Positions 9,805-35,714 of a stretch of DNA of 53,342 nucleotides are shown in pieces; the first letter of the stretch is position 1, and each line of letters begins with the position of its first letter. The stretch comes from an uncultured Gammaproteobacteria bacterium (GTDB lineage Bacteria; Patescibacteriota; Microgenomatia; UBA8517). Under the pieces are notes generated by a model, which worked only from the letters and a program-made list of their open reading frames with translations, searched no databases and was not told where the DNA came from. The stretch lies in NCBI GenBank assembly GCA_964627195.1, contig CAZVJU010000006.1:6200-59541 (forward strand), given 5' to 3'. The position numbers were made by a program, and so were the translations under genes.

Positions 9805-10597
9805 GACTACTTTAGACAAGGTAGACAAAAAAGAGACAAACAAGGATACGCAAAATCAGCCGGTGGGAGGTTATCTTACTCAAATGAAGGAGCTTCCGCC
9901 GCAGGAGGAGGCTATTGCGACAAAAGTAAAAACCGAGTCAGAAAAACCACCTCTTCAGGAGACAAAAGAGGTCGGTAAGGTGACTAAAGGTGAGCCACAG
10001 AAAGAAGATAGAAAGGATATGGCTGAAGATCCATTGGAGCAAGAACTTTTTGGGGAAGAGAAATCTTTTCGGATTCCTTTATCATCAAAAGATGTAATTT
10101 TAGGAATAATTAACATTGTTTCCGTGATTTTTTTGATTATTATTCTTTTTCAGTTTCCTAAAAAAGCACAGGAGCTGAAGAGTTTGAGAGTGGAGGAGTA
10201 TCTGAATGAAGCTACGGAAACCTTTGAATTTGAGGAAATGGAGCTAAATAGACAGAAGTCCGAAAAGCTGCAGACATTTTTTACCGACGAGTCGGGAATA
10301 GTTGAGTTTGTGAATGAACTTGAAAAAATCGGGTCTGCCAGCGGGGTTCTTAAAAACGTTACTTTTGCCAACCAAGTGCCTGTAAAGGATAAGGCCGGAA
10401 GTTTTGGAATTCCAATCGTAATCGATCTCGAAGGCAGTTGGGAAGGTATCGATCAAGATTTACAAAAAATTGATAAATTAAGTTTCCTCATAAGACCTGT
10501 CAAGGTGGATGTAGAACCTTCCGAAGATGAGCCGGGAGTGATACTATTTAAGTACGGAGTTATTTTGTATGTTAACGATACAAAATTCGCACAATAG
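9794..10597 (+). CDS. PilO-like protein
   Basis: Follows pilMN; single TM helix and ferredoxin-like C-terminus (I.LEGSW..I...L..I..L). Confidence 0.6.
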   Translation: MITKTTLDKVDKKETNKDTQNQPVGGYLTQMKELPPQEEAIATKVKTESEKPPLQETKEVGKVTKGEPQKEDRKDMAEDPLEQELFGEEKSFRIPLSSKDVILGIINIVSVIFLIIILFQFPKKAQELKSLRVEEYLNEATETFEFEEMELNRQKSEKLQTFFTDESGIVEFVNELEKIGSASGVLKNVTFANQVPVKDKAGSFGIPIVIDLEGSWEGIDQDLQKIDKLSFLIRPVKVDVEPSEDEPGVILFKYGVILYVNDTKFAQ

Positions 10598-10713
10598 TGC
10601 GACTTTTGTAAGCAGAGCTTGGCACCACTTTGTGTTGTGGCATATGATATCTGTAAACTGGGAGAAAATAAGTAAATAATATTATTTACTTGGCATATTC
10701 TTGATATATATAT

Positions 10714-10953
10714 ATGAATTTAAGTGAAACATTAGAATCTGTAGATAAATTTTATATCGTCTTTGCAGCAATTCTTATCCTTTTGGCTGTAATGGTTATA
10801 TTCTCTTTTCGTGGGCTCTTTTCAGCTTATCTGACGGCATATGAAATCGGTCAGAAAGACTTGGGAAATAGCGTAAGAATAGATAAAGGTAACATGGAAG
10901 AAGCTGATAAATGGGTGTCAAATAAAGAAACCTTACCATTAGAAATTAGATGA
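10714..10953 (+). CDS. Small membrane protein upstream of pilin
   Basis: One TM helix; ATGA overlap with pilin gene. Confidence 0.55.
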   Translation: MNLSETLESVDKFYIVFAAILILLAVMVIFSFRGLFSAYLTAYEIGQKDLGNSVRIDKGNMEEADKWVSNKETLPLEIR

Positions 10954-11435
10954 TGAAAAATAATAAGATTGTTCTTGCTGTTAAACGGGGTTTTACATTG
11001 ATCGAGCTTCTGGTTGTTATAGCCATTTTGGGAATTTTGTCGACTGTTGTGGTTGTAGCAGTTAATCCGGCACGACAGCTTGCCAAAGCTCGAGATGTCC
11101 AAAGGGAAACCGATCTGATAGGGATTATGTCGGCAATCCTGCAATATTCTTCGGAACATAGCGGATCTTTGCCTGATACAGACGGTGATCCGGATATTAG
11201 TAATTTCCCCGGCGCAGCTACCTGTATGGGTTCGGATGCGGGTTGTTTTGACCTCGCGAATTCAGGCGATGTAGGAGATGAAATTGTTCCTGTTTATTTG
11301 GTTGAAATACCGGCCGATCCGCAAGCGGATGATCCAGTGGGAAACACAGAGTATACGATATATGTAGATGTAAATGGTCGACTCCATGCCGCAGCCATAG
11401 GCGAAATTAACAATCCGATTACGGTAGATAGATAG
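10950..11435 (+). CDS. Type IV major pilin-like protein
   Basis: RG|FTLIELLVVIAILGIL, NP..QL.KARD..R, cysteine pair, IP.DP. Confidence 0.92.
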   Translation: MMKNNKIVLAVKRGFTLIELLVVIAILGILSTVVVVAVNPARQLAKARDVQRETDLIGIMSAILQYSSEHSGSLPDTDGDPDISNFPGAATCMGSDAGCFDLANSGDVGDEIVPVYLVEIPADPQADDPVGNTEYTIYVDVNGRLHAAAIGEINNPITVDR

Positions 11436-11492
11436 TTTTAAAAAGTTTGTCTTCAAATTAGCCCTATTATGAAATCATGGTAAAATCGGATT

Positions 11493-11831
11493 ATGGATTT
11501 TATTGACAAAAAATTAACACTAAAAGAAATTTTACATCTGCGCAATAAATATGGCGTTTATATGAAGCTTACAATTGACGTTGAAAACAGATGGGTTATT
11601 GTCGGAGGAGAATTGCATGCTGACGGCGAAAAGTTGTTGCTTGAGAAAGGAAGTAAACAAAAAGATATTTGGGGCGGGGGGATTAATTTTTTGGATAAGG
11701 AAGTAGATACAACAGCAGTTCTCAATATTCGACCACGATTGGATAACGACAATCTAGAAATATTGGATTCAGAAATCCGCAAAAAATTTTATGATATTAT
11801 AAAAAAGTTTTTTGAAAAATTATGGCACTAG
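11493..11831 (+). CDS. DUF5674-like protein
   Basis: K..IDVE....VGGELHAD.E..LL..GS.Q..IWGG, NIRPR..N. Confidence 0.75.
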   Translation: MDFIDKKLTLKEILHLRNKYGVYMKLTIDVENRWVIVGGELHADGEKLLLEKGSKQKDIWGGGINFLDKEVDTTAVLNIRPRLDNDNLEILDSEIRKKFYDIIKKFFEKLWH

Positions 11832-12082
11832 ATAAATACGATAATGTTTCTGATGCCGTTGCCGATCTTTATCGTGCGTCCTACTATTTGGCTAAAAAAT
11901 CAAAAGATGTTGGGATATTGTTTTTATTAAAATCAAAGAAAAGGTTAGGGGAAAAGTTAACTTTGGACATAAATAAAATAGTAAAAGGAAATGTCCTTAA
12001 CCGTTCTTATGACTATTATTATTGGGCTGAAAAGGTTCTTGATGAGTACAAAAGGTTAAAAATGATTTTGTCTTCGAATTAG
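11822..12082 (+). CDS. Hypothetical helical protein, partner of DUF5674 gene
   Basis: Overlaps upstream gene; its last codons LSSN* are supplied by repeat A copy 2. Confidence 0.65.
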   Translation: MALDKYDNVSDAVADLYRASYYLAKKSKDVGILFLLKSKKRLGEKLTLDINKIVKGNVLNRSYDYYYWAEKVLDEYKRLKMILSSN

Positions 12083-12126
12083 CCTTAGAGTAAAATTGGT
12101 CACTATTCACCAGAAGAAATGTAATT

Positions 12127-12774
12127 ATGGTAAAGAAATCATTTACTGAACTTACGAAAATAGAGCGGAGCGTTTTAGACAAACTTGATACCCCTACAAA
12201 AATTCAAAAGTTTATTGACGAAAAAATTACCTATGATCCGGTGAAAGAAGATAGAAGTGTCAGGGAAGTAATTAGGGATAAAAAAGCCGAGTGTTACAAC
12301 GGAGCGATTTTCGCGGTAGCGTGTTTATTCCATAACGGCTATAAAGCATCGATCATTGAACTTCTCGCCCGGGATGACGAGGAGCACATTTTATGTGCCT
12401 ATCAAGTCAATGGAAGATATGGGTCAATTGCCCAAAGTAAATTCTTAGGCCTTAAAGGGCGAAACCCCATTTATAAAACTCTGCATGATTTGGTAGTGAG
12501 CTACATGGAATTTTATTTTGCGTTTGACGGTAGGTATACTCTCTTATCACATACCAAACTTCTTCCCCTTTCTAAATATCACAACAAATGGTTTTCCGAC
12601 AGCGGCGTAGTTAGGAAAATGGCAAAAGATTTGCGTGAGTCAAAACATGTAAACCTAATCGGTCCGGAAGACTCATTTTCTTACGTGTCTTACGAGCGGT
12701 TTTGGAAAGAGATTTTGGTTTTGCCGAAGGGAATAACACTTTCCAAAGATTATCTTCCCCGACCGAAGAAATAA
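12127..12774 (+). CDS. Transglutaminase-like hypothetical protein
   Basis: L.TP.KIQ.F, C..GA.FA, D..H, YG.I..S.F.GL..R.P pattern. Confidence 0.6.
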   Translation: MVKKSFTELTKIERSVLDKLDTPTKIQKFIDEKITYDPVKEDRSVREVIRDKKAECYNGAIFAVACLFHNGYKASIIELLARDDEEHILCAYQVNGRYGSIAQSKFLGLKGRNPIYKTLHDLVVSYMEFYFAFDGRYTLLSHTKLLPLSKYHNKWFSDSGVVRKMAKDLRESKHVNLIGPEDSFSYVSYERFWKEILVLPKGITLSKDYLPRPKK

Positions 12775-12845
12775 AAAGTACAGCAATTAAGTAGTGGGTT
12801 TCCGAATTTGTCCGCAAATTATATCTGGAGTAGAATATTGAAAGA

Positions 12846-13391
12846 ATGTCTGTAAGTATCACATATTTTGTTCATGGAACAACAATTGATAATGAAAAAG
12901 GGATTTCCTCGGGTTGGTCGGATACTGAACTTTCAGAGTTGGGTAAAAAACAGTCGAGAGATTTAGGAGAAAAAACTAAGGATAAAAAATTTGATGCTGT
13001 GTTTTGTTCTGATTTAAAAAGAGCAGTGGATTCTGCAAATATTACTTTCGGCGGAAGTTTTAAAGTTATTCAGGACCAAAGACTTCGCGAGTGTAACTAT
13101 GGAGATTTGAATGGTAACCCTTCGGAAATTGTTGATCCGCTGCAGGAAAAAAATATTATAAATAAATTTCCCAATGGCGAAAGTTATGAAAACGTAAAGG
13201 AAAGAATTCAAGATTTTTTGACTTTCCTGAAAAAGAATTATGACGGGAAATCTGTCGGAATTGTTGCCCATAAAGCACCTCAACTAGCACTGGATGTTTT
13301 AGTAAAAGGCAAAACTTGGGAGGAAGCTTTTGCCGAGGACTGGCGGAAGAAAAAAGCCTGGCAACCTGGGTGGGACTATGTTCTCGAATAA
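12846..13391 (+). CDS. Histidine phosphatase (phosphoglycerate mutase) family protein
   Basis: HG.T..N, SDLKRA, RLRECNYG, PNGES, VAH motifs. Confidence 0.9.
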   Translation: MSVSITYFVHGTTIDNEKGISSGWSDTELSELGKKQSRDLGEKTKDKKFDAVFCSDLKRAVDSANITFGGSFKVIQDQRLRECNYGDLNGNPSEIVDPLQEKNIINKFPNGESYENVKERIQDFLTFLKKNYDGKSVGIVAHKAPQLALDVLVKGKTWEEAFAEDWRKKKAWQPGWDYVLE

Positions 13392-13425
13392 TTTGCCTTC
13401 AAATTTACTCCGGAGTGATTATAGC

Positions 13426-13462
13426 TTGACAATATCTACATGAAGTATATACTGAGTATATA
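13426..13462 (+). promoter_or_regulatory. Own promoter and operator of the TA cassette
   Basis: TTGACA (13426)-16 nt-TATACT (13448), overlapped by palindrome TATATACT-G-AGTATATA. Confidence 0.7.
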
Positions 13463-13758
13463 TGAGTACAGCTGTTATAAATATCAAAACTGATGTGAAG
13501 ATAAAAAGCCAGGCACAGAAAATTGCTTCAGATTTAGGTTTTAGCCTTAGTGCTTTAATCAATGGTTATCTTAACCAGCTAATTAAAACCAAGACGGTTC
13601 ATTTTTCCGCTACGGAAGAAATTCCCAGCGAATTTATGATACAAGCTCTTAGAGAGTCGGAAGAAGATAGAAAGAAGAAAAGATTTAAGTCTTTTGATTC
13701 CGCTGATAAGGCCTTAGGATATTTAGATAAAATAATTAATGAAGGTAAAAAGAATTGA
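13462..13758 (+). CDS. RelB/DinJ family antitoxin
   Basis: INIKTD..IK..A..IA..LG.SLS..IN RHH-like N-terminus; overlaps toxin gene. Confidence 0.85.
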   Translation: MSTAVINIKTDVKIKSQAQKIASDLGFSLSALINGYLNQLIKTKTVHFSATEEIPSEFMIQALRESEEDRKKKRFKSFDSADKALGYLDKIINEGKKN

Positions 13759-14011
13759 TTTTTCGAAGAGGTTTGAAAAAGATTTAAAGAAGGCCCCGGT
13801 AAAAATTAGAAAAGCTTTCAGAGGAAGAATCGAAATATATCTTACGGATAAATTTAATCCCATTTTGAATAATCACGCGTTGACTGGCAGGCTTGAGGGT
13901 TATAGGAGCATTAATGTAACAGGCGATTGGAGAGCTATTTTTAGAGAGTTAGAGAGCGGAGAAATTGTTTATTTTGACTTTTTGGGTACACACAGCCAAC
14001 TTTATAGATAG
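13739..14011 (+). CDS. RelE/YafQ family mRNA interferase toxin
   Basis: F.KDLKK, NHAL.G...GYRSI.VTGD.R, GTHSQLY C-terminus. Confidence 0.9.
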   Translation: MKVKRIDFSKRFEKDLKKAPVKIRKAFRGRIEIYLTDKFNPILNNHALTGRLEGYRSINVTGDWRAIFRELESGEIVYFDFLGTHSQLYR

Positions 14012-14144
14012 TTCTATTAAAGAATAATTTATCTTCAAACCGAATCGGAAATTAATGATAGAAATCATAGTAGAATAACGTAAAGGCACGAGATTCTGAT
14101 ACACAGTCTTGAGAGTAAAAAACGGTGATTTGTAGATTTAAGAT

Positions 14145-14421
14145 ATGGCAAAAGTAGCAGGCAAATATTGGTTTAAGGCCAAGAATTATGGCTGGGGATG
14201 GTATCCGGCAACTTGGCAAGGATGGTTAATTTTGGCAGGATTTATTTATCTTAATTATTGGTAATTATCAAGAAATTGATTCTCAGTCCCATTCCATAAG
14301 TGACACTTTACTAAACTTCATACCCCGGGTGTTGGTGTTGACTCTTCTTTTAATCGCAGTTTACTTCCTGACCGGCGAGAAACCGGAATGGCGATGGGGT
14401 GGGAAGAAAATTAAAATGTAA
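14145..14421 (+). pseudogene. Frameshifted small membrane protein (WFKAK.YGWGW.P...GEKP.WRWG type)
   Basis: MAKVAGKYWFKAKNYGWGWYPATWQGW...YW* continues in the +1 frame as NYQEIDSQSHS...TGEKPEWRWGGKKIKM*; 277 nt, one extra base near 14261. Confidence 0.8.
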
Positions 14422-14471
14422 AACCATAGGATTGTCTTCGAATTAGCTCCGGAGTAGAATTATTTTAAGCT

Positions 14472-14578
14472 AATTCAAGAAGTCCACCGCTTTAGACGTG
14501 GATGAATTGAATCATTGAAAATTCATTCGCCGAAGGCGAATGTAGCTCGAAGGACCACGGCATAAGAGGTGGACTTCT
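14472..14578. mobile_element. ~100-bp MITE/PATE-like palindromic element
   Basis: 11-bp inverted repeats AGAAGTCCACC (14478) and GGTGGACTTCT (14568); inner hairpin CATTCGCC-GAA-GGCGAATG; CCAC...GTGG hairpins at both ends. Confidence 0.55.
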
Positions 14579-15519
14579 ATCTGAGGTTGTTAACCTCGCT
14601 GCGGTATAGAACTTACACTATTTTGAAAAAGAGAAAAAAATCAATACCAACTTTAGTGGGAATTCTACTGCTGATGATTGGAATTTTATCGGGTCTCCTT
14701 CTTATTTCAAGAAGACAAATTTTTGTGCAAAAGGCAGCGCCAAATACAACACTTAATCTTATTCCCAGCACGAATAATCTTAAAGTGGGTGATAGTTTTA
14801 GTGTGTTTGTGAACATAGATACGGGCAGTAATACTTTCATTGGGGCAGAACTTTATTTAGATATCGAGCCGGTGTCACTACTGGAAATTACTGACATAAC
14901 AAGCGGTGATTTCCTTCCAGTTACCGGCGAAGAAGTTAAATCGATAGACAATTCCGTAGGTAAAATAGAGTATTTGGTTTACCTCATACCCGGGAGTGAG
15001 ATTACTCCGTTAAAAGGCAAAGGAACTTTGGCGGTGATTTGGGCAAAAGTCTTGAAAGAAGGGTCGGTAACTATCAGTTTTAACCCAAAAAGCCAGACTG
15101 CTACAAGTGATGAGGATGCGGGTCAGAATTTGTTGGCAAGTGCAGAATCTCTACAGATTTTGATAAATAGCGATAGAGAGTTAACTGAAACCTCGGCTCC
15201 TATTTCTTTAACACCAACCGGGATTTCAGAAAAGAAAATTTCGCCGACACTAACTCCCGGAAAAAGTGAGTTACCAAAGGTTAAAAAGTCGCCTACTACT
15301 GTACCGACTGACTTTCCATCGCCGGTCGTTTTTGACGAACCGGGCCGCGAGGATGAAGAAAACAGTAGCTGCGTGGATTTCGGCTATTTGTTTTTAGTGA
15401 TTAGAAGATTGGGAAGAGATGTGAATCCCGGTACTGATGGAGATTTTACAAACGACGGACAAGTAAGTTTCACTGACTTATTTGCAGTTTTAGGCGAGAT
15501 TAAACTTAGGTGTAACTAG
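14569..15519 (+). CDS. Membrane-anchored cohesin-domain protein with Pro/Thr linker and dockerin-like C-terminus (true start probably TTG near 14623)
   Basis: TM helix, VGD.FSV.V.IDT..GAEL, G.GTLA.I, GDFTNDGQVSFTDL EF-hand-like loop. Confidence 0.7.
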   Translation: MDFYLRLLTSLRYRTYTILKKRKKSIPTLVGILLLMIGILSGLLLISRRQIFVQKAAPNTTLNLIPSTNNLKVGDSFSVFVNIDTGSNTFIGAELYLDIEPVSLLEITDITSGDFLPVTGEEVKSIDNSVGKIEYLVYLIPGSEITPLKGKGTLAVIWAKVLKEGSVTISFNPKSQTATSDEDAGQNLLASAESLQILINSDRELTETSAPISLTPTGISEKKISPTLTPGKSELPKVKKSPTTVPTDFPSPVVFDEPGREDEENSSCVDFGYLFLVIRRLGRDVNPGTDGDFTNDGQVSFTDLFAVLGEIKLRCN

Positions 15520-15566
15520 CCGCTCGGTTTTCTTGTCTTCAAATTATCTCCGGAGTAGAATGTGAT

Positions 15567-16349
15567 TTGATGAAAGTTAAAGTTGCTGTTTTGCAGTACG
15601 ATGTTCCCGAGGAGTCTGATACTTCTTTTAAAAAATTAAACGAGATGATTTTGCAGGCTGGGTGGGCTGGAGCGAGACTAATAGTTGCTCCTGAAACTGC
15701 TGTCGGAGAAGTTGGGGAATTGAAAGAAAAAGACATAGATTATTTTTCAAGACTCGCAGAAATTGCAAAGAAACACAGCGTTTTTCTAGCTACAAGTTTT
15801 TACACAAAAAAAGACGGTAAATTTTATAACCAAGGCCATATTATTTCCCCTGAGGGTAAATCTGTTGTATCGCACAGAAAAATGTATCCGGCAAAACCGG
15901 AGATAGAAAATATCGGTGTAGTTGCTGGAAGTTCTTTAGAAGTCAAGAAAACAGAAATCGGTAAACTTGGTATGCTTATTTGTAAAGATGGATTTAATAA
16001 ATATTCCCACTTTTTGTACGACAAATTTAATTCGTTGGGGATAGAAATAATTTGTATTCCGACCTGGTCTATTGGTTGGAAGGAGATGAACACTGAAGAA
16101 TATGTAAAAGCACTGTATGTGTACGGAGCTTTTACAAGTCGATCATTTATTCTTATGTCGGGTAATTTGAATATGTCTTTTAACTCATACGGGAGGTCCC
16201 TAATAGTTAGTCCGATAAAGGGTATTTTGAAAGAGGGAAGTAGTAATCACAAAGAAATTCTTTATGAAGAATTGGATTTAGATGAAGTTGCTAAAGCCCG
16301 AAAGTTTGATTCCTGGTGGCAGCCGAAAAAGAAAATTGACATCGAATAA
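15567..16349 (+). CDS. Carbon-nitrogen hydrolase (nitrilase superfamily); start probably ATG 15570
   Basis: E-K-C triad motifs: VAPE, HRKM, GMLICKD; G.S.IVSP. Confidence 0.9.
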   Translation: MMKVKVAVLQYDVPEESDTSFKKLNEMILQAGWAGARLIVAPETAVGEVGELKEKDIDYFSRLAEIAKKHSVFLATSFYTKKDGKFYNQGHIISPEGKSVVSHRKMYPAKPEIENIGVVAGSSLEVKKTEIGKLGMLICKDGFNKYSHFLYDKFNSLGIEIICIPTWSIGWKEMNTEEYVKALYVYGAFTSRSFILMSGNLNMSFNSYGRSLIVSPIKGILKEGSSNHKEILYEELDLDEVAKARKFDSWWQPKKKIDIE

Positions 16350-16386
16350 TTTGTCTTCAAATTAGCTTCAGAGTAAAATTGTTACA

Positions 16387-16848
16387 ATGAAATATCAAGT
16401 CCCGGAGGTGGGTGAGATTGAAATTAAGACAATTATACTCGACCTTAATGGCACACTTTCTGTCAATGGAAAAATTCCTGACGGGGTAAAAGAGAGATTA
16501 AAAAAACTAAAGGACTTGGGTATAAAGGTTATTTTACTTACGGGTGATCAACGAGGAACTGCTGCAGATTTATGCAAAGAATATGGAATAGACTTTGTTC
16601 GTACAAAGAATGGCAAAGAAAAAGAAGCAGCAATGAAATCTTTTGATTCAGAAACAACCGCCGCAATTGGGAATGCAAGGATCGATATCGGAACTTTTAA
16701 ACACGCGAAAGTGTCTCTTGCTACATTGCAATCTGAAGGTGTTCACATGGGGATTATTTGTAACGTAGATGTGGTTGTTCCATCCATAAATGACGCGTTG
16801 GATTTCTTTATAGACTCCGATATTTTTTGCGTAACTTTGCGAAAATAA
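16387..16848 (+). CDS. HAD-family soluble P-type ATPase-like protein
   Basis: LDLNGTL, LTGD..GT, AIGN..ID motifs. Confidence 0.85.
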   Translation: MKYQVPEVGEIEIKTIILDLNGTLSVNGKIPDGVKERLKKLKDLGIKVILLTGDQRGTAADLCKEYGIDFVRTKNGKEKEAAMKSFDSETTAAIGNARIDIGTFKHAKVSLATLQSEGVHMGIICNVDVVVPSINDALDFFIDSDIFCVTLRK

Positions 16849-16893
16849 TTCTCTTCAGATTAGTACTTCTAAAGAGTGTAAAATTTAAAAAAT

Positions 16894-17250
16894 ATGAGTG
16901 AACAGACATCACCTGTTGATGATTATTTGTTGCCGTTAGTTCAAAGAGTTTTAAGAGTTTTTCCTGCATGGAAAGTATTTGCTTTTCAAGGAGCTCTAAC
17001 TGCCGTTCTCGTTGGGTGGGGTATTGACTATACTTTGGCAGATGGTTTGGTGTATCTATCCTTTAACTTTTTATTCTTGTGGTTACTTTACAGGAAATTC
17101 GGAAGGGTCAGGGATACGAAGATTTTTGTTTACGGATTTGCTGGGATAAGTGTTTTGCTACAGCTTCTGATATTCTTTCCGGGAATTGAGAGTGCAATAG
17201 GAGAAGTTTATTTTAGGATTTATTGTTTGATAACAAAAGTGTATTGTTAG
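16894..17250 (+). CDS. Hypothetical membrane protein
   Basis: Three hydrophobic segments; fills one repeat-delimited cassette. Confidence 0.65.
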   Translation: MSEQTSPVDDYLLPLVQRVLRVFPAWKVFAFQGALTAVLVGWGIDYTLADGLVYLSFNFLFLWLLYRKFGRVRDTKIFVYGFAGISVLLQLLIFFPGIESAIGEVYFRIYCLITKVYC

Positions 17251-17309
17251 TATAATCGAAAAATATAAATTTGTCTTCAAATCAGCTCAAAGTTTTAATA
17301 TGTTTGGCG

Positions 17310-18005
17310 CTATCGATACAATTTGGTTTGCAACATTTTAATCTCTCGTATGAGTTTCTTGGAAATTACTTTAGGATAGTTTTTGAGCGGTTTTAGCTCG
17401 CTTCCAATCCCTTGTGTTTCAGGGATATCTTTTTTACCACCTTTATTTTGCTTGAGAATACCTTGCCGGCTCTGCCGCGAGGATGAACGAGCATAAGTAC
17501 TGCTATCTGAAAGATACTTCGCTGCTCTGCCGCGATGCAGTTCATTTTGAAACTTTTGCCATGTGTTGTATCCGTCTTCAGTTAGGTGCATTGACCCTGT
17601 ACAGCTATCACTTTTGCACAAACAGTTATGACTGCAGGGGTTGCAAGTCATTTTGGGAGGAAGTAAATATGAAATAGTTAATTCAGATCCTTTCCTAATG
17701 TTTTTTAATGCAAAAACAATAGTGTGGTTTCTAAATTTAGTTATCCAGCAATTCGGAGAGCAGGAATGATTAAGGAGATAAATGCCGGGCTTTTTTAAAT
17801 CGGGGTAAATACCGGTCTCGTCGTCGTAATACATTAAGTATAAGTTTTTCTTTTCCTTCTCAAAATCGACATCTTTTAACTGAACCACTTTGCCCACGTA
17901 ATCACCAATCACTACTCCTTGCCTAATTGGTTTATTGGCAAAAACCCCTCTTCCTTTATTCTTTGTTTTTTTAATTTCCCAATAAACTTCGGGCAATAAA
18001 AACAT
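17310..18005 (-). CDS. SET-domain protein with post-SET cysteines
   Basis: KGRGVFA, NHSCSPN, ELTISY, CLC....C.G motifs. Confidence 0.9.
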   Translation of the reverse strand: MFLLPEVYWEIKKTKNKGRGVFANKPIRQGVVIGDYVGKVVQLKDVDFEKEKKNLYLMYYDDETGIYPDLKKPGIYLLNHSCSPNCWITKFRNHTIVFALKNIRKGSELTISYLLPPKMTCNPCSHNCLCKSDSCTGSMHLTEDGYNTWQKFQNELHRGRAAKYLSDSSTYARSSSRQSRQGILKQNKGGKKDIPETQGIGSELKPLKNYPKVISKKLIREIKMLQTKLYR

Positions 18006-18141
18006 ATGCTAATTTACCATACATTTTCAATTATAGTTCTGATTTGTCTTCAAATTAGCTCTGGTGGGAATACTCTATTTCCATTTATATGTAAGGCTTG
18101 TATAGTAGTGAGAAGTTTGGATCTTTAACACACTTATTTTA

Positions 18142-18948
18142 ATGGATCAATTTATTCTGCATTACCCTGTGCTATCTGCTCTTATAGCTGGCATATTTGC
18201 CTGGGGATTAACGGCGCTTGGTGCGGCAGGCGTATTTATTTTTCGGACAGTTAGCCAAAAGTTATTGGATTCAATGCTTGGGTTTGCTGCGGGCGTTATG
18301 ATTGCAGCGAGCTTTTGGTCATTGCTTGCTCCGTCAATAGAGCTTAGTGAGCAGATCGGTGTGGTAAAGTGGATTCCGCCAGTCATTGGGTTTTTAGTTG
18401 GAGGGTTTTTTTTGTGGCTTGTTGACAAGATTTTACCCCATTTGAATATCGGACAATCAAAATCTCATCCCGAAGGGATACCTACCAATTGGCATACAAC
18501 TGTTCTGCTTTTTTTAGCCATAACATTTCATAATTTTCCTGAAGGATTAGCAGTCGGTGTTGCTTTTGGAGCAGCTGCGGCTGGTATACCGGGGGCCAGT
18601 GCTGCCGCTGCAATGGCCTTAGCGATAGGTATCGGAATACAGAATTTTCCCGAGGGGTTTGCTGTCTCAATGCCATTTAGACGGGTAGGAGTAACGAAGC
18701 TTAAAAGTTTCCTCTTTGGACAGGGTTCAGCGCTTATTGAACCGATTGCAGCGGTAGTAGGCGCGGTAGGGGTATTGGCTATGCGTCCGCTTTTACCTTA
18801 TGCACTGGCATTTGCAGCAGGAGCGATGATTTATGTTTCGGTTGAAGAAATAATTCCTGAGTCGCAGAAAAATGCGACTGATGTTGCAACGATTGGCGCA
18901 ATGCTGGGATTTGCAATAATGATGGTTCTGGATGTTGCTCTCGGGTAG
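18142..18948 (+). CDS. ZIP family metal transporter (GufA/ZupT type)
   Basis: GFAAGVM, HNFPEG, QNFPEG, AFAAGAMIYV..EEIIPE. Confidence 0.93.
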   Translation: MDQFILHYPVLSALIAGIFAWGLTALGAAGVFIFRTVSQKLLDSMLGFAAGVMIAASFWSLLAPSIELSEQIGVVKWIPPVIGFLVGGFFLWLVDKILPHLNIGQSKSHPEGIPTNWHTTVLLFLAITFHNFPEGLAVGVAFGAAAAGIPGASAAAAMALAIGIGIQNFPEGFAVSMPFRRVGVTKLKSFLFGQGSALIEPIAAVVGAVGVLAMRPLLPYALAFAAGAMIYVSVEEIIPESQKNATDVATIGAMLGFAIMMVLDVALG

Positions 18949-18988
18949 TCTTAATCTTCAATTGATTCTTCCGAAGTTTTTCCAGATG

Positions 18989-20419
18989 TCAGCTTCCCGA
19001 CTGCGGTTCAATCCAAGAATTTCCGTCCGCCTCGAGAAGTTCATCTGCCTCTTTTGGTCCCCAGGAATCCGGTTGATAAAGAGAAACCTTCCTTTTCATT
19101 TCCAAAAGTGCATCCACGAATCTCCAGCCCTCTTGCACTTCTTGCGCGTCGGTGAAAAAAGTCTGATCTCCTGAGAATGCGTCATAGAAAAGCCTCTCAT
19201 ATGCATCGGGTATTTCCAAATTAGAGGCGGGGTAAGAAAAATACATTGGATACGAATTTAAAAGCATTTTATGTCCAGGTCTTTTAATAAGAACATCAAG
19301 ACCAATGCCTTCATCCGGCTGAACTCTATAAGTTAGTACATTAGGTTTATCTCCCAAATCAAATTTTGAAAAAAGTCTATCTTCTGCAACTTTAAAAACT
19401 ATTTTTATTTCGGTTACCCATCTAACCAATTTTTTGCCGGCACGAATATAAATTGGAACCCCTCTCCAACGACTGTTTCGAACTTCTGTTTTTAATGCAA
19501 AAAAAGTTTCTGTTTGGGAATTTTTGTCTATATTCTCTTCGTAAAGATAGCCGTTGTATTGGCCAAAGACAACTTTGTCAGGGAACGGTTTTAGAACTTT
19601 TAGGATTTTTACTCTTTCTGCCGTTACCGCCTCGTTTGAAAACTGTCTCGGCGGATCCATTGTCGATAGGGCAAGCATTTGCAATAAGTGATTTTGGCCG
19701 ACATCTCTTAATGCTCCGATTGAATCGTAATATCTACCCCGCTCTCCGATGCCGAAATCCTCAGATGCCGTTATTTGGATTTGGCTGACGTGTTTTCTAT
19801 TCATCAAATGCTCGAAAATGCCATTATTAAAACGAAAAATTAATAGGTTTTGCAGAGTTTCCTTTCCCAAATAGTGATCGAGGCGAAAAATCTGGTCTTC
19901 CGAAAAATATTTTCGAAGTAAAGAGTCTAGGACATTAGCGCTGGGTAAATCTCGGCCGATTGGTTTTTCAATGATAAGCCGAGTCCAGCCGTTTTTCCTG
20001 GCATTTAGTTTAGAGTGGGCAATTGATTTAAAAATCTTGTCGTAAAGGTCAGGGTAAGTTGCCAGATAAAAGATGATGTTAGAAAAAGTGTTGGTTTCAA
20101 TAATCTTTTTCAGCGACGAATATACTTTTTTGGCGCTTTTTTTATCGTTAACATCACCTTGTAAGTAGAGCATATTTCTAAGGAGCTTGTCAGCAGTTTC
20201 AGGATCAATTGCGCGGTGGTGGTGTCGGTTTTTTCTGGCTAAGACTTCGAGGATGAAGTTTCTGAATTCACTTTTTGAATAAGGTTTCCTGCCGATTCCG
20301 GCAACTATGAACTTTGCCGGAAGAAGGTTTTTGTCAAAAAGATCATAAAGCACGGGGATAAGCTTTATTTGCGACAGGTTCCCTGTAATTCCAAAAACAA
20401 CCAATGCAAAAGAATCCAT
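18989..20419 (-). CDS. zwf: Glucose-6-phosphate 1-dehydrogenase
   Basis: FG.TGNL, IIEKP.G.D, RLDHYLGKE, DVGQNHLLQ, RWRGVP...RAGK. Confidence 0.95.
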   Translation of the reverse strand: MDSFALVVFGITGNLSQIKLIPVLYDLFDKNLLPAKFIVAGIGRKPYSKSEFRNFILEVLARKNRHHHRAIDPETADKLLRNMLYLQGDVNDKKSAKKVYSSLKKIIETNTFSNIIFYLATYPDLYDKIFKSIAHSKLNARKNGWTRLIIEKPIGRDLPSANVLDSLLRKYFSEDQIFRLDHYLGKETLQNLLIFRFNNGIFEHLMNRKHVSQIQITASEDFGIGERGRYYDSIGALRDVGQNHLLQMLALSTMDPPRQFSNEAVTAERVKILKVLKPFPDKVVFGQYNGYLYEENIDKNSQTETFFALKTEVRNSRWRGVPIYIRAGKKLVRWVTEIKIVFKVAEDRLFSKFDLGDKPNVLTYRVQPDEGIGLDVLIKRPGHKMLLNSYPMYFSYPASNLEIPDAYERLFYDAFSGDQTFFTDAQEVQEGWRFVDALLEMKRKVSLYQPDSWGPKEADELLEADGNSWIEPQSGS

Positions 20420-25516: not shown

Positions 25517-25567
25517 AAGTAATTTTCTCGCAAGTAAATCTGAAGCAAAGTTTTACCAATATAACTC

Positions 25568-25620
25568 CGGTTCTCGCTCTTCCCGAAAAACCCGTCCCTC
25601 CCGGCTCCCGAGCAGGCTAA
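25568..25620 (+). repeat. Orphan gene-tail repeat C, copy 1 (VLALPEKPVPPGSRAG*)
   Basis: 49/53 identical to 26808-26860. Confidence 0.9.
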
Positions 25621-25697
25621 GACAATCAATGGATATCTTCTGCATCAAAAAGTACGGTTACAGGTCCTAACCAGTTTTTGCTGGTAGCAGCCAGCAG

Positions 25698-26696: not shown

Positions 26697-26807
26697 AAAT
26701 TGCAGGAGCTGGTGGACTTTCTAGGAAACTGGTCAATCAAAAATCTTCATATAAATAAAAAATATTTTCTCTGATAAATTTAAAGTAAGCATTTCCAAAT
26801 AAAAGTG

Positions 26808-26860
26808 CGGTTCTTGCTCTTCCCGAAAAACCCATCCCTCCCGGCTCCCGTGCAGGGTAA
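26808..26860 (+). repeat. Orphan gene-tail repeat C, copy 2 (VLALPEKPIPPGSRAG*)
   Basis: 49/53 identical to 25568-25620; followed by hairpin AGAAATCACAT...ATGTGATTTCT (26861-26900). Confidence 0.9.
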
Positions 26861-27023
26861 AGAAATCACATTTTGAAATTGAACTAAAGATGTGATTTCT
26901 ATGGCATATGTCACGTTATTTATAGTTCTAAATCAAAGTGTGACATCTGTAAGTAATTAGGTTTGGGGAAAATTTGGGTATTGCATTTTTAAAAATCTGG
27001 CCTTTAAATAAACTTATGGGGTT

Positions 27024-31002: not shown

Positions 31003-34000
31003 ATGAGGAAACTTTTTCTAAATCAAAAAATTTGTAAAAAGATAGCAACACTACTTTTGTCTTTTTTAATGTTGCTTTCTTCAGCTCTACCCTATCTCCA
31101 AATGCCTTTTAGTCCTAAACCGGCGTTTGCAGCCTGTAGTGCGAGTTCAACATCAACCTCCGGAACTAACTCTCCAAGAAGGACTTCAGCAAAACTGAGT
31201 GGCAGAGTTGGTGGAGTGGCACTGGATCAAGCAGCCAAATTTCTTGCCGACATGTCCGAAGTGACCGGTGCTTACTACGATCAGGATTTAGACCGCATTG
31301 TCTTTGTTGGGAGAAAGAGTGCAACCTTGCCGAAGTTTGATAGGGATGATCTGGCAGTCGCTATAAAAGCGATTATGTTTCATGGTGAAATTCCTTGGGT
31401 GAGTTTGGAGGGAACAAACCCTGATCCAAATTATGTGGATGCGGTATTTAGTCCTGGAATAGAGAACACAAGGTTTGGAGAGATATTAATTCAGGCGGAT
31501 TATAAATTAAAACAGTATGCTCATGGATATGACACTAATGATCAACTGCTGGTATCAAGCGTACCAGGCTATAAGTCGTTTCATGACCGTTATTATGAAA
31601 AAATACAATCACATGATCCAACCGGTTATGACGATCTCTCTAGGTTTTGGATTACGCCGCAATTAATTTCCCTTAAAAAAGATGATGTTGCGAGTGCATT
31701 TGTTTTTGAGACCGTTAAGATGCAGGTCCAGACAGAAGCGATGGGTAATAACAGTCCTTACTGGACCGCGGCAGCAGATGAGTTTGCAGACCACTTTACA
31801 CAGTACTATGATTCTTTTGGACAGGAAAGCCCGATAATTAATGATACTAAAAGACTTGGCCAAATAGCTGCGGTAGTCAAGTGGATTAATGATAGCGGAA
31901 TAACAACAGACTTTTATTGGGCACGGGATTATGCACCCAAAAAAGTAACCACGGCTAAATCTTTTAAGAAAATTTATTCTAAGAGATATGAATATCAATA
32001 TGAGGAGAATGGTCAGATTTTTGATGCCAGCTTTAGAATTGAAGGCGGAGCTGATCTATTTACCGACAATACATATAGTCAGGATAGTACGGGTACTTCT
32101 TCTGGTTTGAAAGACTCCTCACAGCAGGTTCAAACAACCAAGGAAGATGTTCACTGGACATTTAATAAAGATGGTCAGAGTTACGAAGCTGTGGCAGTCG
32201 CGGCAGACGCATTCAGAACTCTGGGTTCATACACAATGACCGCGACAGATATGGCTTTTCCCACTGCTGGAGACCTAAGTTTGGCTTTCCAAAGGACTTA
32301 CTCCTCTTTCTCGGGCGGTCAATACGGAGTTGGGCGGGGATGGAACATTTATCCCGCACTTCTTTTTGATAATAAACCTGCTTATCCCGCAATCACTCTC
32401 CCTTGTGCGAACGGAAATCATCCCAAATCCTTAGCCTTTGTTTCTCAAACAGGGGGGTTTGAATCATTCACAATTAACGACTGCTCGATTGGCTATGTTG
32501 CAGATGATCCTGCCTATCATTCACAAGTATTTCATAATACTGACGGAACATTCACTGTTCGACTTAAAAATCAAACAGAATTCATATTTTCTTCTGAATT
32601 CAAACTCACAAAGGTTAAAGATAAAGTTGGGAATGTGATGACCTACGCTTATGACGGGTCGGGAAAGATCGCTAACATTGCAGACGGCAAGGGTCATCAA
32701 TTAACGGTTAATTACGGCAGTAATGACCTCATTTCCTCAATTTCTGATTGGTCGGGGCGTGCGGTAAGTTATACGTATGATGCAGAAGGAAACTTGCTTA
32801 CAGTCAAGGATCCGAATAATAACACTACCTCCTATGCCTATGATACTAACTTCAAACTTACAAAGGTCACAGATCGCAATAGTCAGGCGATTGTTACTAA
32901 TACTTACACTGACGAGGCTAAATTAACCACACAAAAAGATACCACTAATACTACTAATACTTACACCTACGACAAGGTAAATAGAAAAATAACATCTACC
33001 GATAATAATGGGAGAACACAAGTTACGACTTATGATAATAAAGCCCGAGTGCTCGAGGTAAAAGATCCTCTCAATTTTACACTTAAGTATACCTACGGGT
33101 CTGAATATTCACCGCTTACAGCGACAGATAAGAATGGGAACAAGATAACTAATACTTATGATGCAAAGGGCAATCTGGCCTCGATTATTTATCCTGATAA
33201 TAAAAAGGTGACCTTTACCTATGATTCGAAAAACAGGTTAACTAAAGAAGTCGATGAACGATACACAACTCCGAAGACAACAAATTACACTTACGATGCA
33301 TTAGGTAATCTCACCCAAGTAGACGAAGCGGGAAGAATTACCAGGTTTACTTATGACACAACAGGGGAAATGCTTTCTTCAACAGATCCCTTGAGTAGAT
33401 TAATTAAATGGACACGAGACAATTTTGGTAACAAGTTAACTGAGATAGACCCATTAAATAATACGACCACGTTTGCTTATGACACTATTGCACAACTAAC
33501 TACGCTAAAAGATGCAGAGTTAAAGCAAATTACTTATACCTATGATGCGAATGGAAATGTCTTAACAACTAAGGATGCAATTGGTATTACGACTAACACT
33601 TATGACAAAGAAAATCGTTTGACAAAAATTACTTACCCCAATTTATCAGTTACCAACTTTAGCTATAACACTTCTGGATCGTTAACTAACGTTACTGATG
33701 CTTCGACCAATGTCACAACTTACGGTTATGATTCTTACCAAAACCTGACTACTCAGCAGGATGCGTTGAATCGACAAACTATTAATACGTATGACAATAT
33801 AAACCGTCTTAAACAATCATCCACTCCTCTAGCGAAAGTTTATAAATGGGAATATGACGCAAACGGCAATATCACAAAACGAATCGATGCGAATAATAAT
33901 GCAACTACTTATACCTATGATGTTTTGAATCGATTAACCAAGATAGCGTATCCGGATACGAAAACAGTTTCGTATGAGTACGACGCCCGTGGAAATATGA

Positions 34001-35667
34001 CGAAAATGATTGACCCTGTGGGTACTTCAATCTATGAATACGACCAGTTCAATCGGATGACAAAAGCAACAAATGCTTACGGAAAAGTCATCAGCTACCA
34101 ATATGATTCAGTTGGAAATCTAACAAAGCTTATTTATCCGGACAATAACTCTGTCAGTTATATATATGATGTGAATAACAATTTAAAGACAGTCACGGAT
34201 TTGGGAGGGAAACAGACACAATATACATATTATAAGAATGGTTTAGTAGCAACTCGGCAATACCCTAATGGGATCAAAACAACCTATACTTATGATGCTG
34301 CAAACCGCTTAAGTCAAATTACTCATACCCAGTCCTACTACACACGAGCTAAATTTGTTTACACACGCGATTTATTGGGGAATATTACCAAAGTTGATGA
34401 ATCAGGTAGTTGGATTTCTTCAACTGTCCAACCAACAACATTTACCTATGATGCGATAGGGAGACTTACGAAAGCGGTATATCCTGGTAGTAAGACATAC
34501 ACGTATACGTACGACAAAGTAGGTAATCGGTTAACTGAAGTCGATCCAAGTGACTCTTTTGCCTTTACATACGATTCAGATGATAAACTTACTCTGAAAG
34601 ATAGGTCCTATAACGATATTTCTTATCAGTATGACTCAAATGGCAACCTTGTTTGGAAAACTTCGACAAACGCAAATCCGCCTCATCCTGAATATAACTA
34701 TGATTTTGAAAATAGACTTACTCGACATTTGACCCAAGCAGGGAATGAGCACCTTTATACCTATGATGGTAATGGGAACAGATTAAAACATTACTTCTCA
34801 ACGGCAGTAACAGAATACACCTATGACACATCTGGATCGATGTCAAGACTTCTGGAAGATGGAGTCGATTACTATCTTTATGGTAACGGCGTTTTAGGAT
34901 CAGGTGACCCATCATTCGGTACTTCACATTATTATATTGAAGATGGTATCGGAAATGTGAGATTTTCAACAAGTTCTTCAGGAGGGACATGGTCGAAAAT
35001 GAAATACGATCCATTTGGCAACGATCGCTCATCTTTCGGTTCCGAGTTATTCCAATTCCACGGACAGCAATATGATTCTGCCAGCAATCTCTACTACATG
35101 CGTGCCAGATATTATGACCCCGAACTCGGTCGTTTCATCTCAAGAGATCCGGTAAAGGGGGACTTAAACAATCCTCAATCGCTACACCCTTATGTATACT
35201 CGTTTAACAATCCTGTCAATTTCAGCGACCCATCAGGGGAGTACATTGATACTGCAATAGACGTGGCATTCTTAGCGTATGACCTTTGCCAAGGTAACTG
35301 GGGCTGGGCTGCAGTTGATGTTGGAATGATGCTATTGCCTGTTGCTAACACAGCAATTGTACGTGGAGGAGCAAAAGCAGTCCAGACAGCAAAACAGGCT
35401 AGCCGTATGGAGAAATTGCAAGAGGCGGCAAAAGTAGGACGCGAAGTCCATCAAGCGATGGAATATCCTGCAGGATTTGTTAAGGAAAAAAGACTCGAGA
35501 GTGGACTGAGGCCCGACGCTCTAAATTATGCCACAAAGCAAATAATAGAGCTCAAACCGAATAATCCGGCGGCAATTAAAAGAGGTGAACGTCAACTAGA
35601 AAAGTATATTAATGAGCTAAATCTGACAGATGGTCCTGGTTGGACTGGTAATATATGGACTTATTAA
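31003..35667 (+). CDS. RHS/YD-repeat polymorphic toxin with C-terminal restriction-endonuclease-fold (Tox-REase-9-like) domain
   Basis: Many YD repeats, RYYDPELGRFISRDP, NPVNFSDPSG; C-terminus GREVH...KE.RL.SG.RPDA...IELKPNN..AI.RG..QL..Y. Confidence 0.9.
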   Translation: MRKLFLNQKICKKIATLLLSFLMLLSSALPYLQMPFSPKPAFAACSASSTSTSGTNSPRRTSAKLSGRVGGVALDQAAKFLADMSEVTGAYYDQDLDRIVFVGRKSATLPKFDRDDLAVAIKAIMFHGEIPWVSLEGTNPDPNYVDAVFSPGIENTRFGEILIQADYKLKQYAHGYDTNDQLLVSSVPGYKSFHDRYYEKIQSHDPTGYDDLSRFWITPQLISLKKDDVASAFVFETVKMQVQTEAMGNNSPYWTAAADEFADHFTQYYDSFGQESPIINDTKRLGQIAAVVKWINDSGITTDFYWARDYAPKKVTTAKSFKKIYSKRYEYQYEENGQIFDASFRIEGGADLFTDNTYSQDSTGTSSGLKDSSQQVQTTKEDVHWTFNKDGQSYEAVAVAADAFRTLGSYTMTATDMAFPTAGDLSLAFQRTYSSFSGGQYGVGRGWNIYPALLFDNKPAYPAITLPCANGNHPKSLAFVSQTGGFESFTINDCSIGYVADDPAYHSQVFHNTDGTFTVRLKNQTEFIFSSEFKLTKVKDKVGNVMTYAYDGSGKIANIADGKGHQLTVNYGSNDLISSISDWSGRAVSYTYDAEGNLLTVKDPNNNTTSYAYDTNFKLTKVTDRNSQAIVTNTYTDEAKLTTQKDTTNTTNTYTYDKVNRKITSTDNNGRTQVTTYDNKARVLEVKDPLNFTLKYTYGSEYSPLTATDKNGNKITNTYDAKGNLASIIYPDNKKVTFTYDSKNRLTKEVDERYTTPKTTNYTYDALGNLTQVDEAGRITRFTYDTTGEMLSSTDPLSRLIKWTRDNFGNKLTEIDPLNNTTTFAYDTIAQLTTLKDAELKQITYTYDANGNVLTTKDAIGITTNTYDKENRLTKITYPNLSVTNFSYNTSGSLTNVTDASTNVTTYGYDSYQNLTTQQDALNRQTINTYDNINRLKQSSTPLAKVYKWEYDANGNITKRIDANNNATTYTYDVLNRLTKIAYPDTKTVSYEYDARGNMTKMIDPVGTSIYEYDQFNRMTKATNAYGKVISYQYDSVGNLTKLIYPDNNSVSYIYDVNNNLKTVTDLGGKQTQYTYYKNGLVATRQYPNGIKTTYTYDAANRLSQITHTQSYYTRAKFVYTRDLLGNITKVDESGSWISSTVQPTTFTYDAIGRLTKAVYPGSKTYTYTYDKVGNRLTEVDPSDSFAFTYDSDDKLTLKDRSYNDISYQYDSNGNLVWKTSTNANPPHPEYNYDFENRLTRHLTQAGNEHLYTYDGNGNRLKHYFSTAVTEYTYDTSGSMSRLLEDGVDYYLYGNGVLGSGDPSFGTSHYYIEDGIGNVRFSTSSSGGTWSKMKYDPFGNDRSSFGSELFQFHGQQYDSASNLYYMRARYYDPELGRFISRDPVKGDLNNPQSLHPYVYSFNNPVNFSDPSGEYIDTAIDVAFLAYDLCQGNWGWAAVDVGMMLLPVANTAIVRGGAKAVQTAKQASRMEKLQEAAKVGREVHQAMEYPAGFVKEKRLESGLRPDALNYATKQIIELKPNNPAAIKRGERQLEKYINELNLTDGPGWTGNIWTY

Positions 35668-35714
35668 ACTTCGTGTACTGCAAAGTTACTACTTTATTCT
35701 ATAATTAATACTAT

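Follow-up and report, generated by a model that had tools for sequence, protein, structure and literature searches.

A short intergenic sequence, here termed Repeat A, probably serves as the junction element of a chromosomal gene-cassette array in a member of Candidatus Woesebacteria, a lineage of the candidate phyla radiation (CPR), and combines an exchange core with a promoter half. It lies within a 53,342-nt stretch of contig CAZVJU010000006.1 (assembly GCA_964627195.1, positions 6,200 to 59,541 of the forward strand; hereafter the window); the host genome (G000) amounts to 1.22 Mb and is 85% complete. We found 11 copies, two of them decayed, all on the plus strand between 11444 and 18059, where they bound 10 units of accessory genes (Table 1). 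An earlier reading of the same DNA (the original prediction) had described a cassette array with a repeat at its junctions; the repeat is indeed present at every junction, and the range then given, 12068 to 16387, proved too narrow. Repeat A is not a chance similarity, because its matches far exceed those in shuffled sequence: at up to 3 mismatches, the 29-nt consensus gave 3 matches versus 0 in 100 shuffles, and the 19-nt core gave 6 matches versus a shuffle mean of 0.10.

We propose that the repeat has two parts. An asymmetric core of about 17-21 nt, (TAA)TTTGTCTTCAAATTAGC(TC), always in one orientation, would be the site at which cassettes are gained, lost, re-ordered and exchanged between genomes. 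The less conserved right half, YCGGAG-TARAAT, would form a sigma-70-type promoter together with the core's TTGTCT 17 nt upstream, and transcripts would start at the ATG or within a few nucleotides of it. Cassettes whose right half has been lost or replaced would rely on a promoter of their own, mostly of the extended -10 type, or would be read from the other strand.

The evidence for exchange comes from the relatives of G000, namely 125 genomes of the same GTDB family (81 genera), and from metagenomes. When open reading frames (ORFs) from 19 stretches of 16 genomes were clustered, the same ORF families recurred in differing orders and combinations, including DUF5674, histidine phosphatase, carbon-nitrogen (C-N) hydrolase, SET, NUDIX, GNAT, glyoxalase, AHSA1 and peptidase S51 proteins and several toxin-antitoxin (TA) pairs. 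Genomes G084 and G140 have three blocks in common (97.1% identity over 1458 nt, 93.8-100% and 84.8%), ordered A-B-x-C in one and B-C-A in the other, with cassette x missing from G140. Counted from a core, all blocks begin between -1 and +1 and finish between +18 and +34. Since identity reaches 94-100% in shared cassettes versus only 71% in the housekeeping region encoding methionyl-tRNA synthetase (MetRS) and a glycosyltransferase, these cassettes have separate, recent histories. In the survey of 59 array stretches, 13 of the 25 free ends of blocks with at least 90% identity fall on a core in both partners, core windows making up 1.7% of the bases. Within G000, a paralogue of the window's SET cassette (87% identity) stands at the start of contig C13, and its homology stops at +18 of the core. 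In contigs assembled from four metagenome DNA runs, the repeat bin reached about 9 times the depth of its flanks, with loose ends bounding a unit at about 16341-16380; the apparent joints in those contigs have sides of only 20-35 nt or are due to the C13 paralogue or to other organisms' copies.

The orientation of the core follows the array and not the gene. At 20 of 81 genome-set junctions and 13 of 82 metagenome-set junctions the next gene is encoded on the opposite strand, and no core is ever inverted; the core is likewise kept where the next gene is self-promoted. At the level of sequence comparison, these data show a core common to several genera to be the oriented boundary and exchange point of mobile single-gene cassettes.

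Conservation was assessed in 78 unique aligned copies from genome loci and in 85 aligned copies from metagenome loci, and the latter reproduce the profile of the former. Positions 3-18 (TTGTCTTCAAATTAGC) are identical in at least 68 of the 78 copies, and this holds for the non-palindromic TCTT at the centre too. Conservation drops to 59-68 of 78 in the outer left arm, takes intermediate values in YCGGAG and amounts to 0.1-0.3 bit in the -10 columns. The nearly invariant part is an asymmetric block, TTTGTCTTCAAATTAGC(T). The original prediction had instead described a double palindrome, and exact instances do occur in the window: TAATTTG-N4-CAAATTA is perfect at 16347-16364, and CTCCGGAG is exact at 13408-13415, 14447-14454 and 15548-15555. 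As a conserved trait the double palindrome did not hold up. The dyad reaches a perfect 7 bp in 17 of 78 copies (1 of 11 in the window) and at least 6 bp in 31 of 78, and 8 of 78 copies have CTCCGGAG exactly; the arms are no more invariant than the non-palindromic centre, and the outer left arm and CTCCGGAG vary freely. The check proposed at the time, namely whether the dyad is more conserved than the -10, has a divided outcome: the core is the more conserved element, and what is conserved in it is the asymmetric block rather than the palindromes. Compensatory change in the short dyad was seen in 2 copies only (G1:C14). Of the window copies, only the perfect one folds (-5.5 kcal/mol, z -2.7), and those at 14430 and 15531 do not.

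It is improbable that the repeats form purely a regulon, i.e. that they are the promoter and operator of one transcription factor co-regulating clustered accessory genes, with the rearrangements being incidental. A 7-4-7 dyad placed over the -35 is typical of repressor operators, genes for C-N hydrolase, histidine phosphatase, DUF5674 and HAD proteins carry the repeat in several genera, and the same variant, T14G, in 4 of the 5 cores of genome G011 suggests co-evolution with a trans-acting reader. A regulon does not, however, lead one to expect cores that hold to the array orientation in front of reversed genes, nor cores that persist where the -10 is gone and another promoter is used. The pile-up of homology-block ends on the core, the difference in identity between cassettes and housekeeping DNA and the poor conservation of the outer dyad positions also speak against it.

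A long form of the repeat, ATTTGTC-[CTAGGGACGTTYGACGTCC]-TTCAAATTAGC, carries a 19-nt hairpin insert exactly at the dyad centre. It is found at some junctions in five genomes (G083, G084, G140, G067 and G022; about 12 copies in genome loci) and in metagenome loci (5 copies), and was not found in G000. Block ends coincide with long-form repeats too, and the same cassette is followed by the long form in locus L177 and by the short form in L206. The inner palindrome of the long form is nearly restricted to arrays. For the long form, a top-strand fold of -8.2 kcal/mol (z -3.3) was computed, and top-strand folding fits because, in 12 copies of the insert, one pair is G.U in 12/12 and 2 of 7 pairs show double compensatory changes. 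These features would suit an element acting at the RNA level, with the dyad and long form as a terminator, attenuator or 3'-end stabiliser of the upstream mRNA and with recombination as a by-product of repetition. So would the upstream stop codon, which overlaps or adjoins the repeat in 18 of 87 and 19 of 89 copies and is part of it at four window junctions (TAA at 13389, 16347 and 16846; TAG at 12080), and the one-sided changes in the short dyad, which are more often top-strand G.T than A.C. The stem-loops of the promoter-early stem-loop (PeSL) cassettes of T4-type phages are terminators according to one report (PMC2839356). Nevertheless, we consider such a role unlikely for Repeat A: the short hairpin is weak even in the perfect copy and absent in many others, it lacks a following U-tract, the core also persists after reversed genes, from which no sense transcript reaches it (copy at 18041), and it is sequence rather than pairing that is conserved, given the two compensatory cases only.

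The promoter half bears out part of the original prediction, which had read the repeat as a leaderless sigma-70 promoter. All five copies named there have TTGTCY exactly 17 nt from TARAAT, as confirmed by reading and by a consensus scan, and at three of them the -10 stands 9, 8 and 7 nt ahead of the ATG (12846, 15570 and 16387), and no GGAGG-like Shine-Dalgarno motif is present. A transcript from copy 2 would not be leaderless, because ATG 12127 stands 30 nt beyond its TAAAAT. The copy at 13390 keeps its left part and has its -10 decayed to TGATTA, as claimed, before a TA pair with a promoter of its own (TTGACA, then TATACT at 13448-13453, then ATG 13462). Copy 10 cannot be the promoter of the next gene, since that gene points towards it. 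Among 70 unique junctions with a start of the leaderless type, 22 have a -10 at 16-18 nt from TTGTCT, the distance being exactly 17 nt in 21 of them, and just 1 of the 22 has an extended -10 TG. The TG occurs in 35 of the other 48, in which the -10 lies at 21-70 nt; this contrast is as expected if TTGTCT serves as -35 only in the 17-nt class. At 39 of 87 and 37 of 89 junctions, a promoter-like -10 box precedes the start codon by 5-9 nt. From this indirect evidence we infer that the repeat, in its full form, acts as a leaderless sigma-70 promoter with the TTGTCT of the core as its -35.

The leaderless design is not special to the array, because the same spacing between -10 and ATG is common throughout the genome: a TAnAAT/TATAHT box stands 6 or 7 nt before an ATG 161 and 152 times, versus about 95-115 times at other spacings, and the ATGs at spacings 6 and 7 open ORFs of at least 100 codons in 43% and 39% of cases, versus about 17% elsewhere. 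In 172 long-ORF starts with a spacing of 6-8 nt, the box is preceded by T at -3 in 86 and by G at -2 in 78.

The 18-nt core, at up to 2 mismatches, occurs in 26 of the 125 family genomes (23 of 81 genera), the reversed-pattern control giving at most 1 match per genome. The core was found in none of 16 genomes of other families. Arrays of 3-10 copies are present in about 10 family genomes, with three in G083. Within G000, the 14-nt core with 0-1 mismatch was found on contigs C6 (7 copies), C13 (5, in the contig's first 3.8 kb) and C31 (1) only, and C13 carries a second array. The metagenome scan gave 118 stretches, reduced to 40 new loci with 89 copies once overlaps and already included records had been removed; all 89 are co-oriented within each locus. 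A broad contig scan returned mostly chance single matches in unrelated phyla, and multiple copies in Woesebacteria records only.

Several further observations concern the repeat and its neighbours. A degenerate solo copy, TAATTTACCTTCAAATTATC, lies on the minus strand of contig C2 (20429-20448), about 100 nt downstream of a homologue of gene family F16, and may be an empty or decayed array site; in G084 an array starts directly after the F16 gene. F16 encodes a small protein found next to several arrays, but as an array partner it was rejected: only 10 of 125 genomes (5 genera) have it, array genomes G011, G022, G118, G138, G140 and G067 are without it, and array-less G077, G079 and G080 possess it. 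Because its presence fails to track arrays, F16 is a clade marker and not a partner. Families F8 and F9 (membrane proteins, PMT-like from sequence alone, with no Pfam match), which stand upstream of several arrays, are syntenic neighbours and not recombinases. The solitary copy at C31:5025-5065 differs from the array copies: it is a partial core, TTTGTCTTCAAATTT, that continues into a longer imperfect palindrome, GAATTGTACAAATTCAAATTGTCC. A second motif, GAGTCCTTCGrTAAAACTCAGGAT(CGTGATAAAAT), directly follows some cores in loci L001, L130, L133 and L137 (genomes G011, G083b, G118 and G067), is duplicated in tandem in G083b, and may be another promoter or leader module.

Of the known systems compared, the PeSL cassettes of T4-type phages offer one analogy. 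As described in two reports, these mobile regulatory cassettes are built on short, conserved motifs between the non-essential genes of a hyperplastic region, with an upstream stop codon in an AT-rich stretch before the -35, one sigma-70 promoter per motif and a stem-loop that may overlap the -35; ORF insertion, deletion, replacement and re-ordering occur at the motifs and are ascribed to homologous recombination (Arbiol et al. 2010, PMC2839356; Comeau et al. 2014, PMC4122927). The anatomy of Repeat A closely matches this account, being that of a conserved intergenic motif with, in part of its copies, an upstream stop just before the -35, a sigma-70-type geometry and a dyad that overlaps the -35 and could form a stem-loop, and its copies likewise mark the points of indel, replacement and shuffling. 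It differs in residing on a CPR chromosome rather than in a T4-type phage, in being common to many genera, in having a weak or missing hairpin in most copies and in preceding a reversed gene at about a quarter of its junctions. Moreover, its 17-21-nt block is far more conserved than a promoter needs, and its starts appear to be leaderless, unlike those of the PeSL, which has a Shine-Dalgarno sequence at the 3' end of the motif.

Integrons offer a second analogy. They encode IntI, a tyrosine recombinase with a specific insertion, usually beside the array, and their promoterless cassettes depend on a single promoter, Pc, next to attI; the attC site consists of R''-L''...L'-R' boxes (RYYYAAC...GTTRRRY) in an imperfect hairpin of about 57-141 nt. 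Integron arrays gain, lose and re-order cassettes at their repeats, and the same was found for arrays of Repeat A. The two also have in common co-oriented repeats bounding mostly single-gene cassettes, an order that differs between relatives, tolerance of reversed cassettes, conserved outer boxes (the outer stem) around a variable apical part (the short and long forms) and cargo typical of sedentary integrons, such as TA pairs, GNAT, glyoxalase, NUDIX and cupin proteins. That the array is a true integron or a cluster of attC sites lacking an integrase (CALIN), its repeats being attC sites recombined by IntI, is nonetheless hardly credible. No IntI was found: the two intact tyrosine recombinases of G000 score 112.9 and 50.3 bits against a cut-off of 265, and no integrase adjoins any of the 59 array stretches. 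Repeat A measures 19-35 nt, or about 45 nt in the long form, instead of attC length, and no RYYYAAC/GTTRRRY boxes were seen in the 78 and 85 aligned copies inspected. No attI- or Pc-like end structure was recognised, and promoters stand at the junctions, with cassettes carrying their own. We thus regard Repeat A, by analogy, as an element that works like PeSL cassettes and integron junctions yet belongs to neither family.

Two further systems were compared. Xer recombinases act at dif, a 28-nt site of two arms of about 11 bp around a 6-8-bp centre, and the pdif modules of Acinetobacter plasmids and the integrative mobile elements exploiting Xer (IMEX) use the host recombinase in trans. The core could be read in these terms, as 6-bp inverted inner arms, TAATTT/AAATTA, around an asymmetric 6-bp centre, GTCTTC, with a right arm conserved over about 11 nt, and, among recombinases, only the Xer-like genes are common to all array genomes. 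It differs in that all sites are in direct orientation, with several arrays per genome and no resemblance to the known dif consensus, and in that the 19-nt insert of the long form would break a classical core site. A search for the arms alone (TAATTT-N6-AAATTAGC) also speaks against a dif-like site, as it stayed at control level in the 125 genomes, with random centres, and at background in array-less relatives; no dif was identified.

Repetitive extragenic palindromic sequences (REPs) and bacterial interspersed mosaic elements (BIMEs) are dispersed, short, intergenic imperfect palindromes with a cognate Y1 transposase, the REP-associated tyrosine transposase (RAYT). Repeat A is likewise a short intergenic imperfect palindrome, and Y1/HUH genes occur in most array genomes. 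We think it quite unlikely that Repeat A is a selfish REP-like or miniature inverted-repeat transposable element (MITE)-like palindrome, mobilised by Y1 (HUH, RAYT-like) proteins and merely accumulating between genes. Its hairpin potential and strand-specific orientation would agree with this, as would Y1_Tnp-like ORFs of about 225 aa in 11 of 13 checked genomes with arrays or paired cores, seven of them in G000. Against it, the repeat is strictly co-oriented and clustered in 1-3 arrays per genome, not dispersed, and marks cassette boundaries. The correlation with Y1 is loose: Y1-like genes also occur in about half of the array-less genomes, are absent from array genome G044 (98% complete), and were not found beside any array.

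Turning to the machinery, our search of the whole window found no recombinase. In G000 at large there are two intact Xer-like tyrosine recombinases (contigs C11 and C23) and one broken one (C1; two PF00589 fragments, 2 TAA stops), none of them on an array contig.

Several observations weigh against the interpretation proposed here. Concerning the promoter, the five sites named in the original prediction score 9/12 against the promoter consensus, an ordinary level for such AT-rich DNA, and 31 such sites occur in 7 kb versus 20.1 +/- 3.9 in shuffled sequence. Only 5 of the 11 window copies, 23 of 79 genome-set copies and 39 of 89 metagenome-set copies retain a -10 at 16-18 nt, and the earlier claim that each junction supplies a promoter is supported to that extent only. 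Because the -10 is so often lost and the next gene so often reversed, promoter function alone cannot explain the core. The contrast in extended -10 TG (Fisher p = 4e-8) comes from related copies that are not independent samples, and the copy statistics at large rest on related sequences. Both copy sets were collected by a core match (up to 3 mismatches anywhere), which inflates the contrast in core conservation, and the gene calls are crudely picked ORFs. As to an enzyme, PF00589 matches all 125 family genomes, usually 2 each, and array-rich G139, G083 and G118 have just 2. A phmmer search with G000's four recombinases against the ORFs of the 59 array stretches returned a single serine-recombinase fragment, about 500 nt upstream of the first core of G044. 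Large serine recombinases were found in 91 of 125 genomes but not in array genomes G139, G118 and G067; IS110 transposases were found in 0 of 5 genomes tested; 66 of the 125 encode Y1/HUH proteins (about 225 aa), array genomes G044 and G043 not being among them. Since no recombinase adjoins the arrays or correlates with them, no enzyme can be named. The recombinase or repressor that the original prediction envisaged at the dyad is a hypothetical one.

We nevertheless infer that something reads the core sequence-specifically, because its centre is invariant, T14G recurs in the G011 cores and a long form exists. That this reader is a sequence- or structure-specific enzyme encoded elsewhere has, in our judgement, close to an even chance; it would explain the invariance of the core including its centre, the strict orientation and the long form with its 19-nt hairpin. 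Exchange by short homology between cores, as in PeSLs, is a possibility that we take seriously rather than favour. Tentatively, the core may be the dedicated recombination site of a CPR gene-capture system not yet described, doubling as the -35 of a leaderless promoter, through which cassettes circulate between Woesebacteria genera. Under such a system, the site would be folded (a hairpin) or asymmetric, its conserved foot, TAATTTG...CAAATTAGC, would be read by an enzyme encoded elsewhere, and its apical part, 4 nt or a 23-nt hairpin, would be analogous to the variable part of attC. Each captured gene would then arrive already expressed.

CPR genomes are tiny and little is known of how they acquire accessory genes; here a defined, oriented sequence of about 20 nt marks single-gene exchange, in some cases between genera only 71% identical in housekeeping DNA, and it appears to supply a promoter fitted to the leaderless expression of the host. 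Were the site read by a specific enzyme, unrelated parts would here make up an integron-like platform for gene capture; were exchange driven by homology, the phage PeSL principle would extend to cellular chromosomes. Either way, the core provides a concrete sequence with which cassette pools can be sought in metagenomes and bench tests designed. In the literature searched, subscription journals being outside its coverage, we found no description of such arrays.

Three other candidate explanations were rejected. No CodY helix-turn-helix domain that would go with a CodY-like operator was found in G000 (85% complete). As a type IIS restriction site, GTCTTC is unremarkable, with an observed/expected ratio of 0.89 for both strands. 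Anchoring at tRNA genes or mimicry of tRNA ends found no footing, there being no tRNA gene in the window and no T-arm-like pairing that could be drawn in either repeat form. An Rfam search (E up to 1) of positions 10500-19000 gave only a chance match to a long non-coding RNA.

The setting of the array is chromosomal (type IV pilus operon, glucose-6-phosphate dehydrogenase (G6PD), aconitase). The array sits between the type IV pilus operon and the ZIP and G6PD genes, and the ZIP transporter gene (18142-18948) comes after copy 11. The cassette contents listed in Table 1 were assigned via Pfam.

Table 1. Copies of Repeat A, cassette units and copies of a dispersed palindromic element. Positions are those of the window unless a G000 contig is given.
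Feature	Position	Strand	Sequence and remarks
Repeat A copy 1	11444-11486	+	core AGTTTGTCTTCAAATTAGC 11444-11462; no -10 at 17 nt
Extended -10 of copy 1	11478-11486	+	TGGTAAAAT; 6 nt upstream of ATG 11493
Unit 1	11493-12082	+	DUF5674 protein 11493-11831 and 86-aa ORF 11822-12082; ORF stop TAG inside next core
Repeat A copy 2	12065-12096	+	TTGTCT 12068-12073, 17 nt, TAAAAT 12091-12096
Unit 2	12127-12774	+	transglutaminase-like protein (Pfam)
Repeat A copy 3	12805-12836	+	TTGTCC 12808-12813, 17 nt, TAGAAT 12831-12836; ATG 12846 9 nt after -10
Unit 3	12846-13391	+	histidine phosphatase (Pfam); stop TAA = first three bases of next repeat
Repeat A copy 4	13390-13421	+	core AATTTGCCTTCAAATTTAC and CTCCGGAG; -10 decayed to TGATTA
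Unit 4	13462-14011	+	RelB-like antitoxin 13462-13758 and YafQ/ParE-like toxin 13739-14011 (Pfam)
Repeat A copy 5, decayed	14026-14074	+	AATTTATCTTCAAACCGAA; 13/19 core positions matched, E 4.4
Unit 5	14146-14420		small membrane-protein ORF, apparent frameshift split, begins MAKVAGKYWFKAKNYGWGWYP; after decayed copy 5
Repeat A copy 6	14429-14460	+	TTGTCT 14432-14437, 17 nt, TAGAAT 14455-14460; degenerate left arm, no hairpin
Unit 6	14569-15519	+	cohesin-domain protein; likely start TTG 14623, giving MKKRKK and then a transmembrane stretch
Repeat A copy 7	15530-15561	+	TTGTCT 15533-15538, 17 nt, TAGAAT 15556-15561; ATG 15570 8 nt after -10
Unit 7	15570-16349	+	carbon-nitrogen hydrolase (Pfam); stop TAA = first three bases of next repeat
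Repeat A copy 8, sole perfect copy	16347-16379	+	TAATTTG-TCTT-CAAATTA 16347-16364
Promoter boxes of copy 8	16351-16379	+	TTGTCT 16351-16356, 17 nt, TAAAAT 16374-16379; ATG 16387 7 nt after -10
Unit 8	16387-16848	+	HAD-family hydrolase (Pfam); stop TAA within decayed copy 9
Repeat A copy 9, decayed	16846-16884	+	TAATTCTCTTCAGATTAG; TAAAAT 16879-16884, 9 nt before ATG 16894
Unit 9	16894-17250	+	118-aa protein, no Pfam match
Repeat A copy 10	17268-17286	+	core AATTTGTCTTCAAATCAGC, without -10
Unit 10	17310-18005	-	SET-domain protein; cores on both sides keep array orientation
Repeat A copy 11, last of array	18041-18059	+	core GATTTGTCTTCAAATTAGC; weak -10-like GGGAAT only
Other copies of palindromic element	G000 C3:39377-39487, C1:103536-103624, C11:17428-17538, C27:11583-11671, C5:12287-12375		

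A palindromic, MITE-like element of 89-111 nt occupies 14470-14580 on the plus strand, in the leader between the promoter of copy 6 and the cohesin-domain gene. It has 6 copies dispersed in G000 on both strands, at 88-96% identity, and six other family genomes gave weak partial matches only. As RNA it folds at -51.6 kcal/mol (z -3.6), and it has no Rfam match. The seven Y1_Tnp (HUH, RAYT-like) matches in G000 are ORFs of about 225-250 aa on contigs C12, C3, C25, C8 and C30, and the palindromic 111-nt element is one candidate substrate of these proteins.

Elsewhere in the window, positions 31003-36167 encode an RHS-repeat protein of 1554 aa, whose C-terminus carries a Tox-REase-9 nuclease domain, and after it a DUF4304 ORF; the two resemble a polymorphic toxin and its candidate immunity gene. 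Direct repeats D1, D3 and D7 are RHS repeats inside this protein. A 108-nt direct repeat (25521-25628 and 26761-26868, 78% identity) lies amid ORFs without a Pfam match, and a HicA/HicB TA pair is encoded on the minus strand at 50711-51185.

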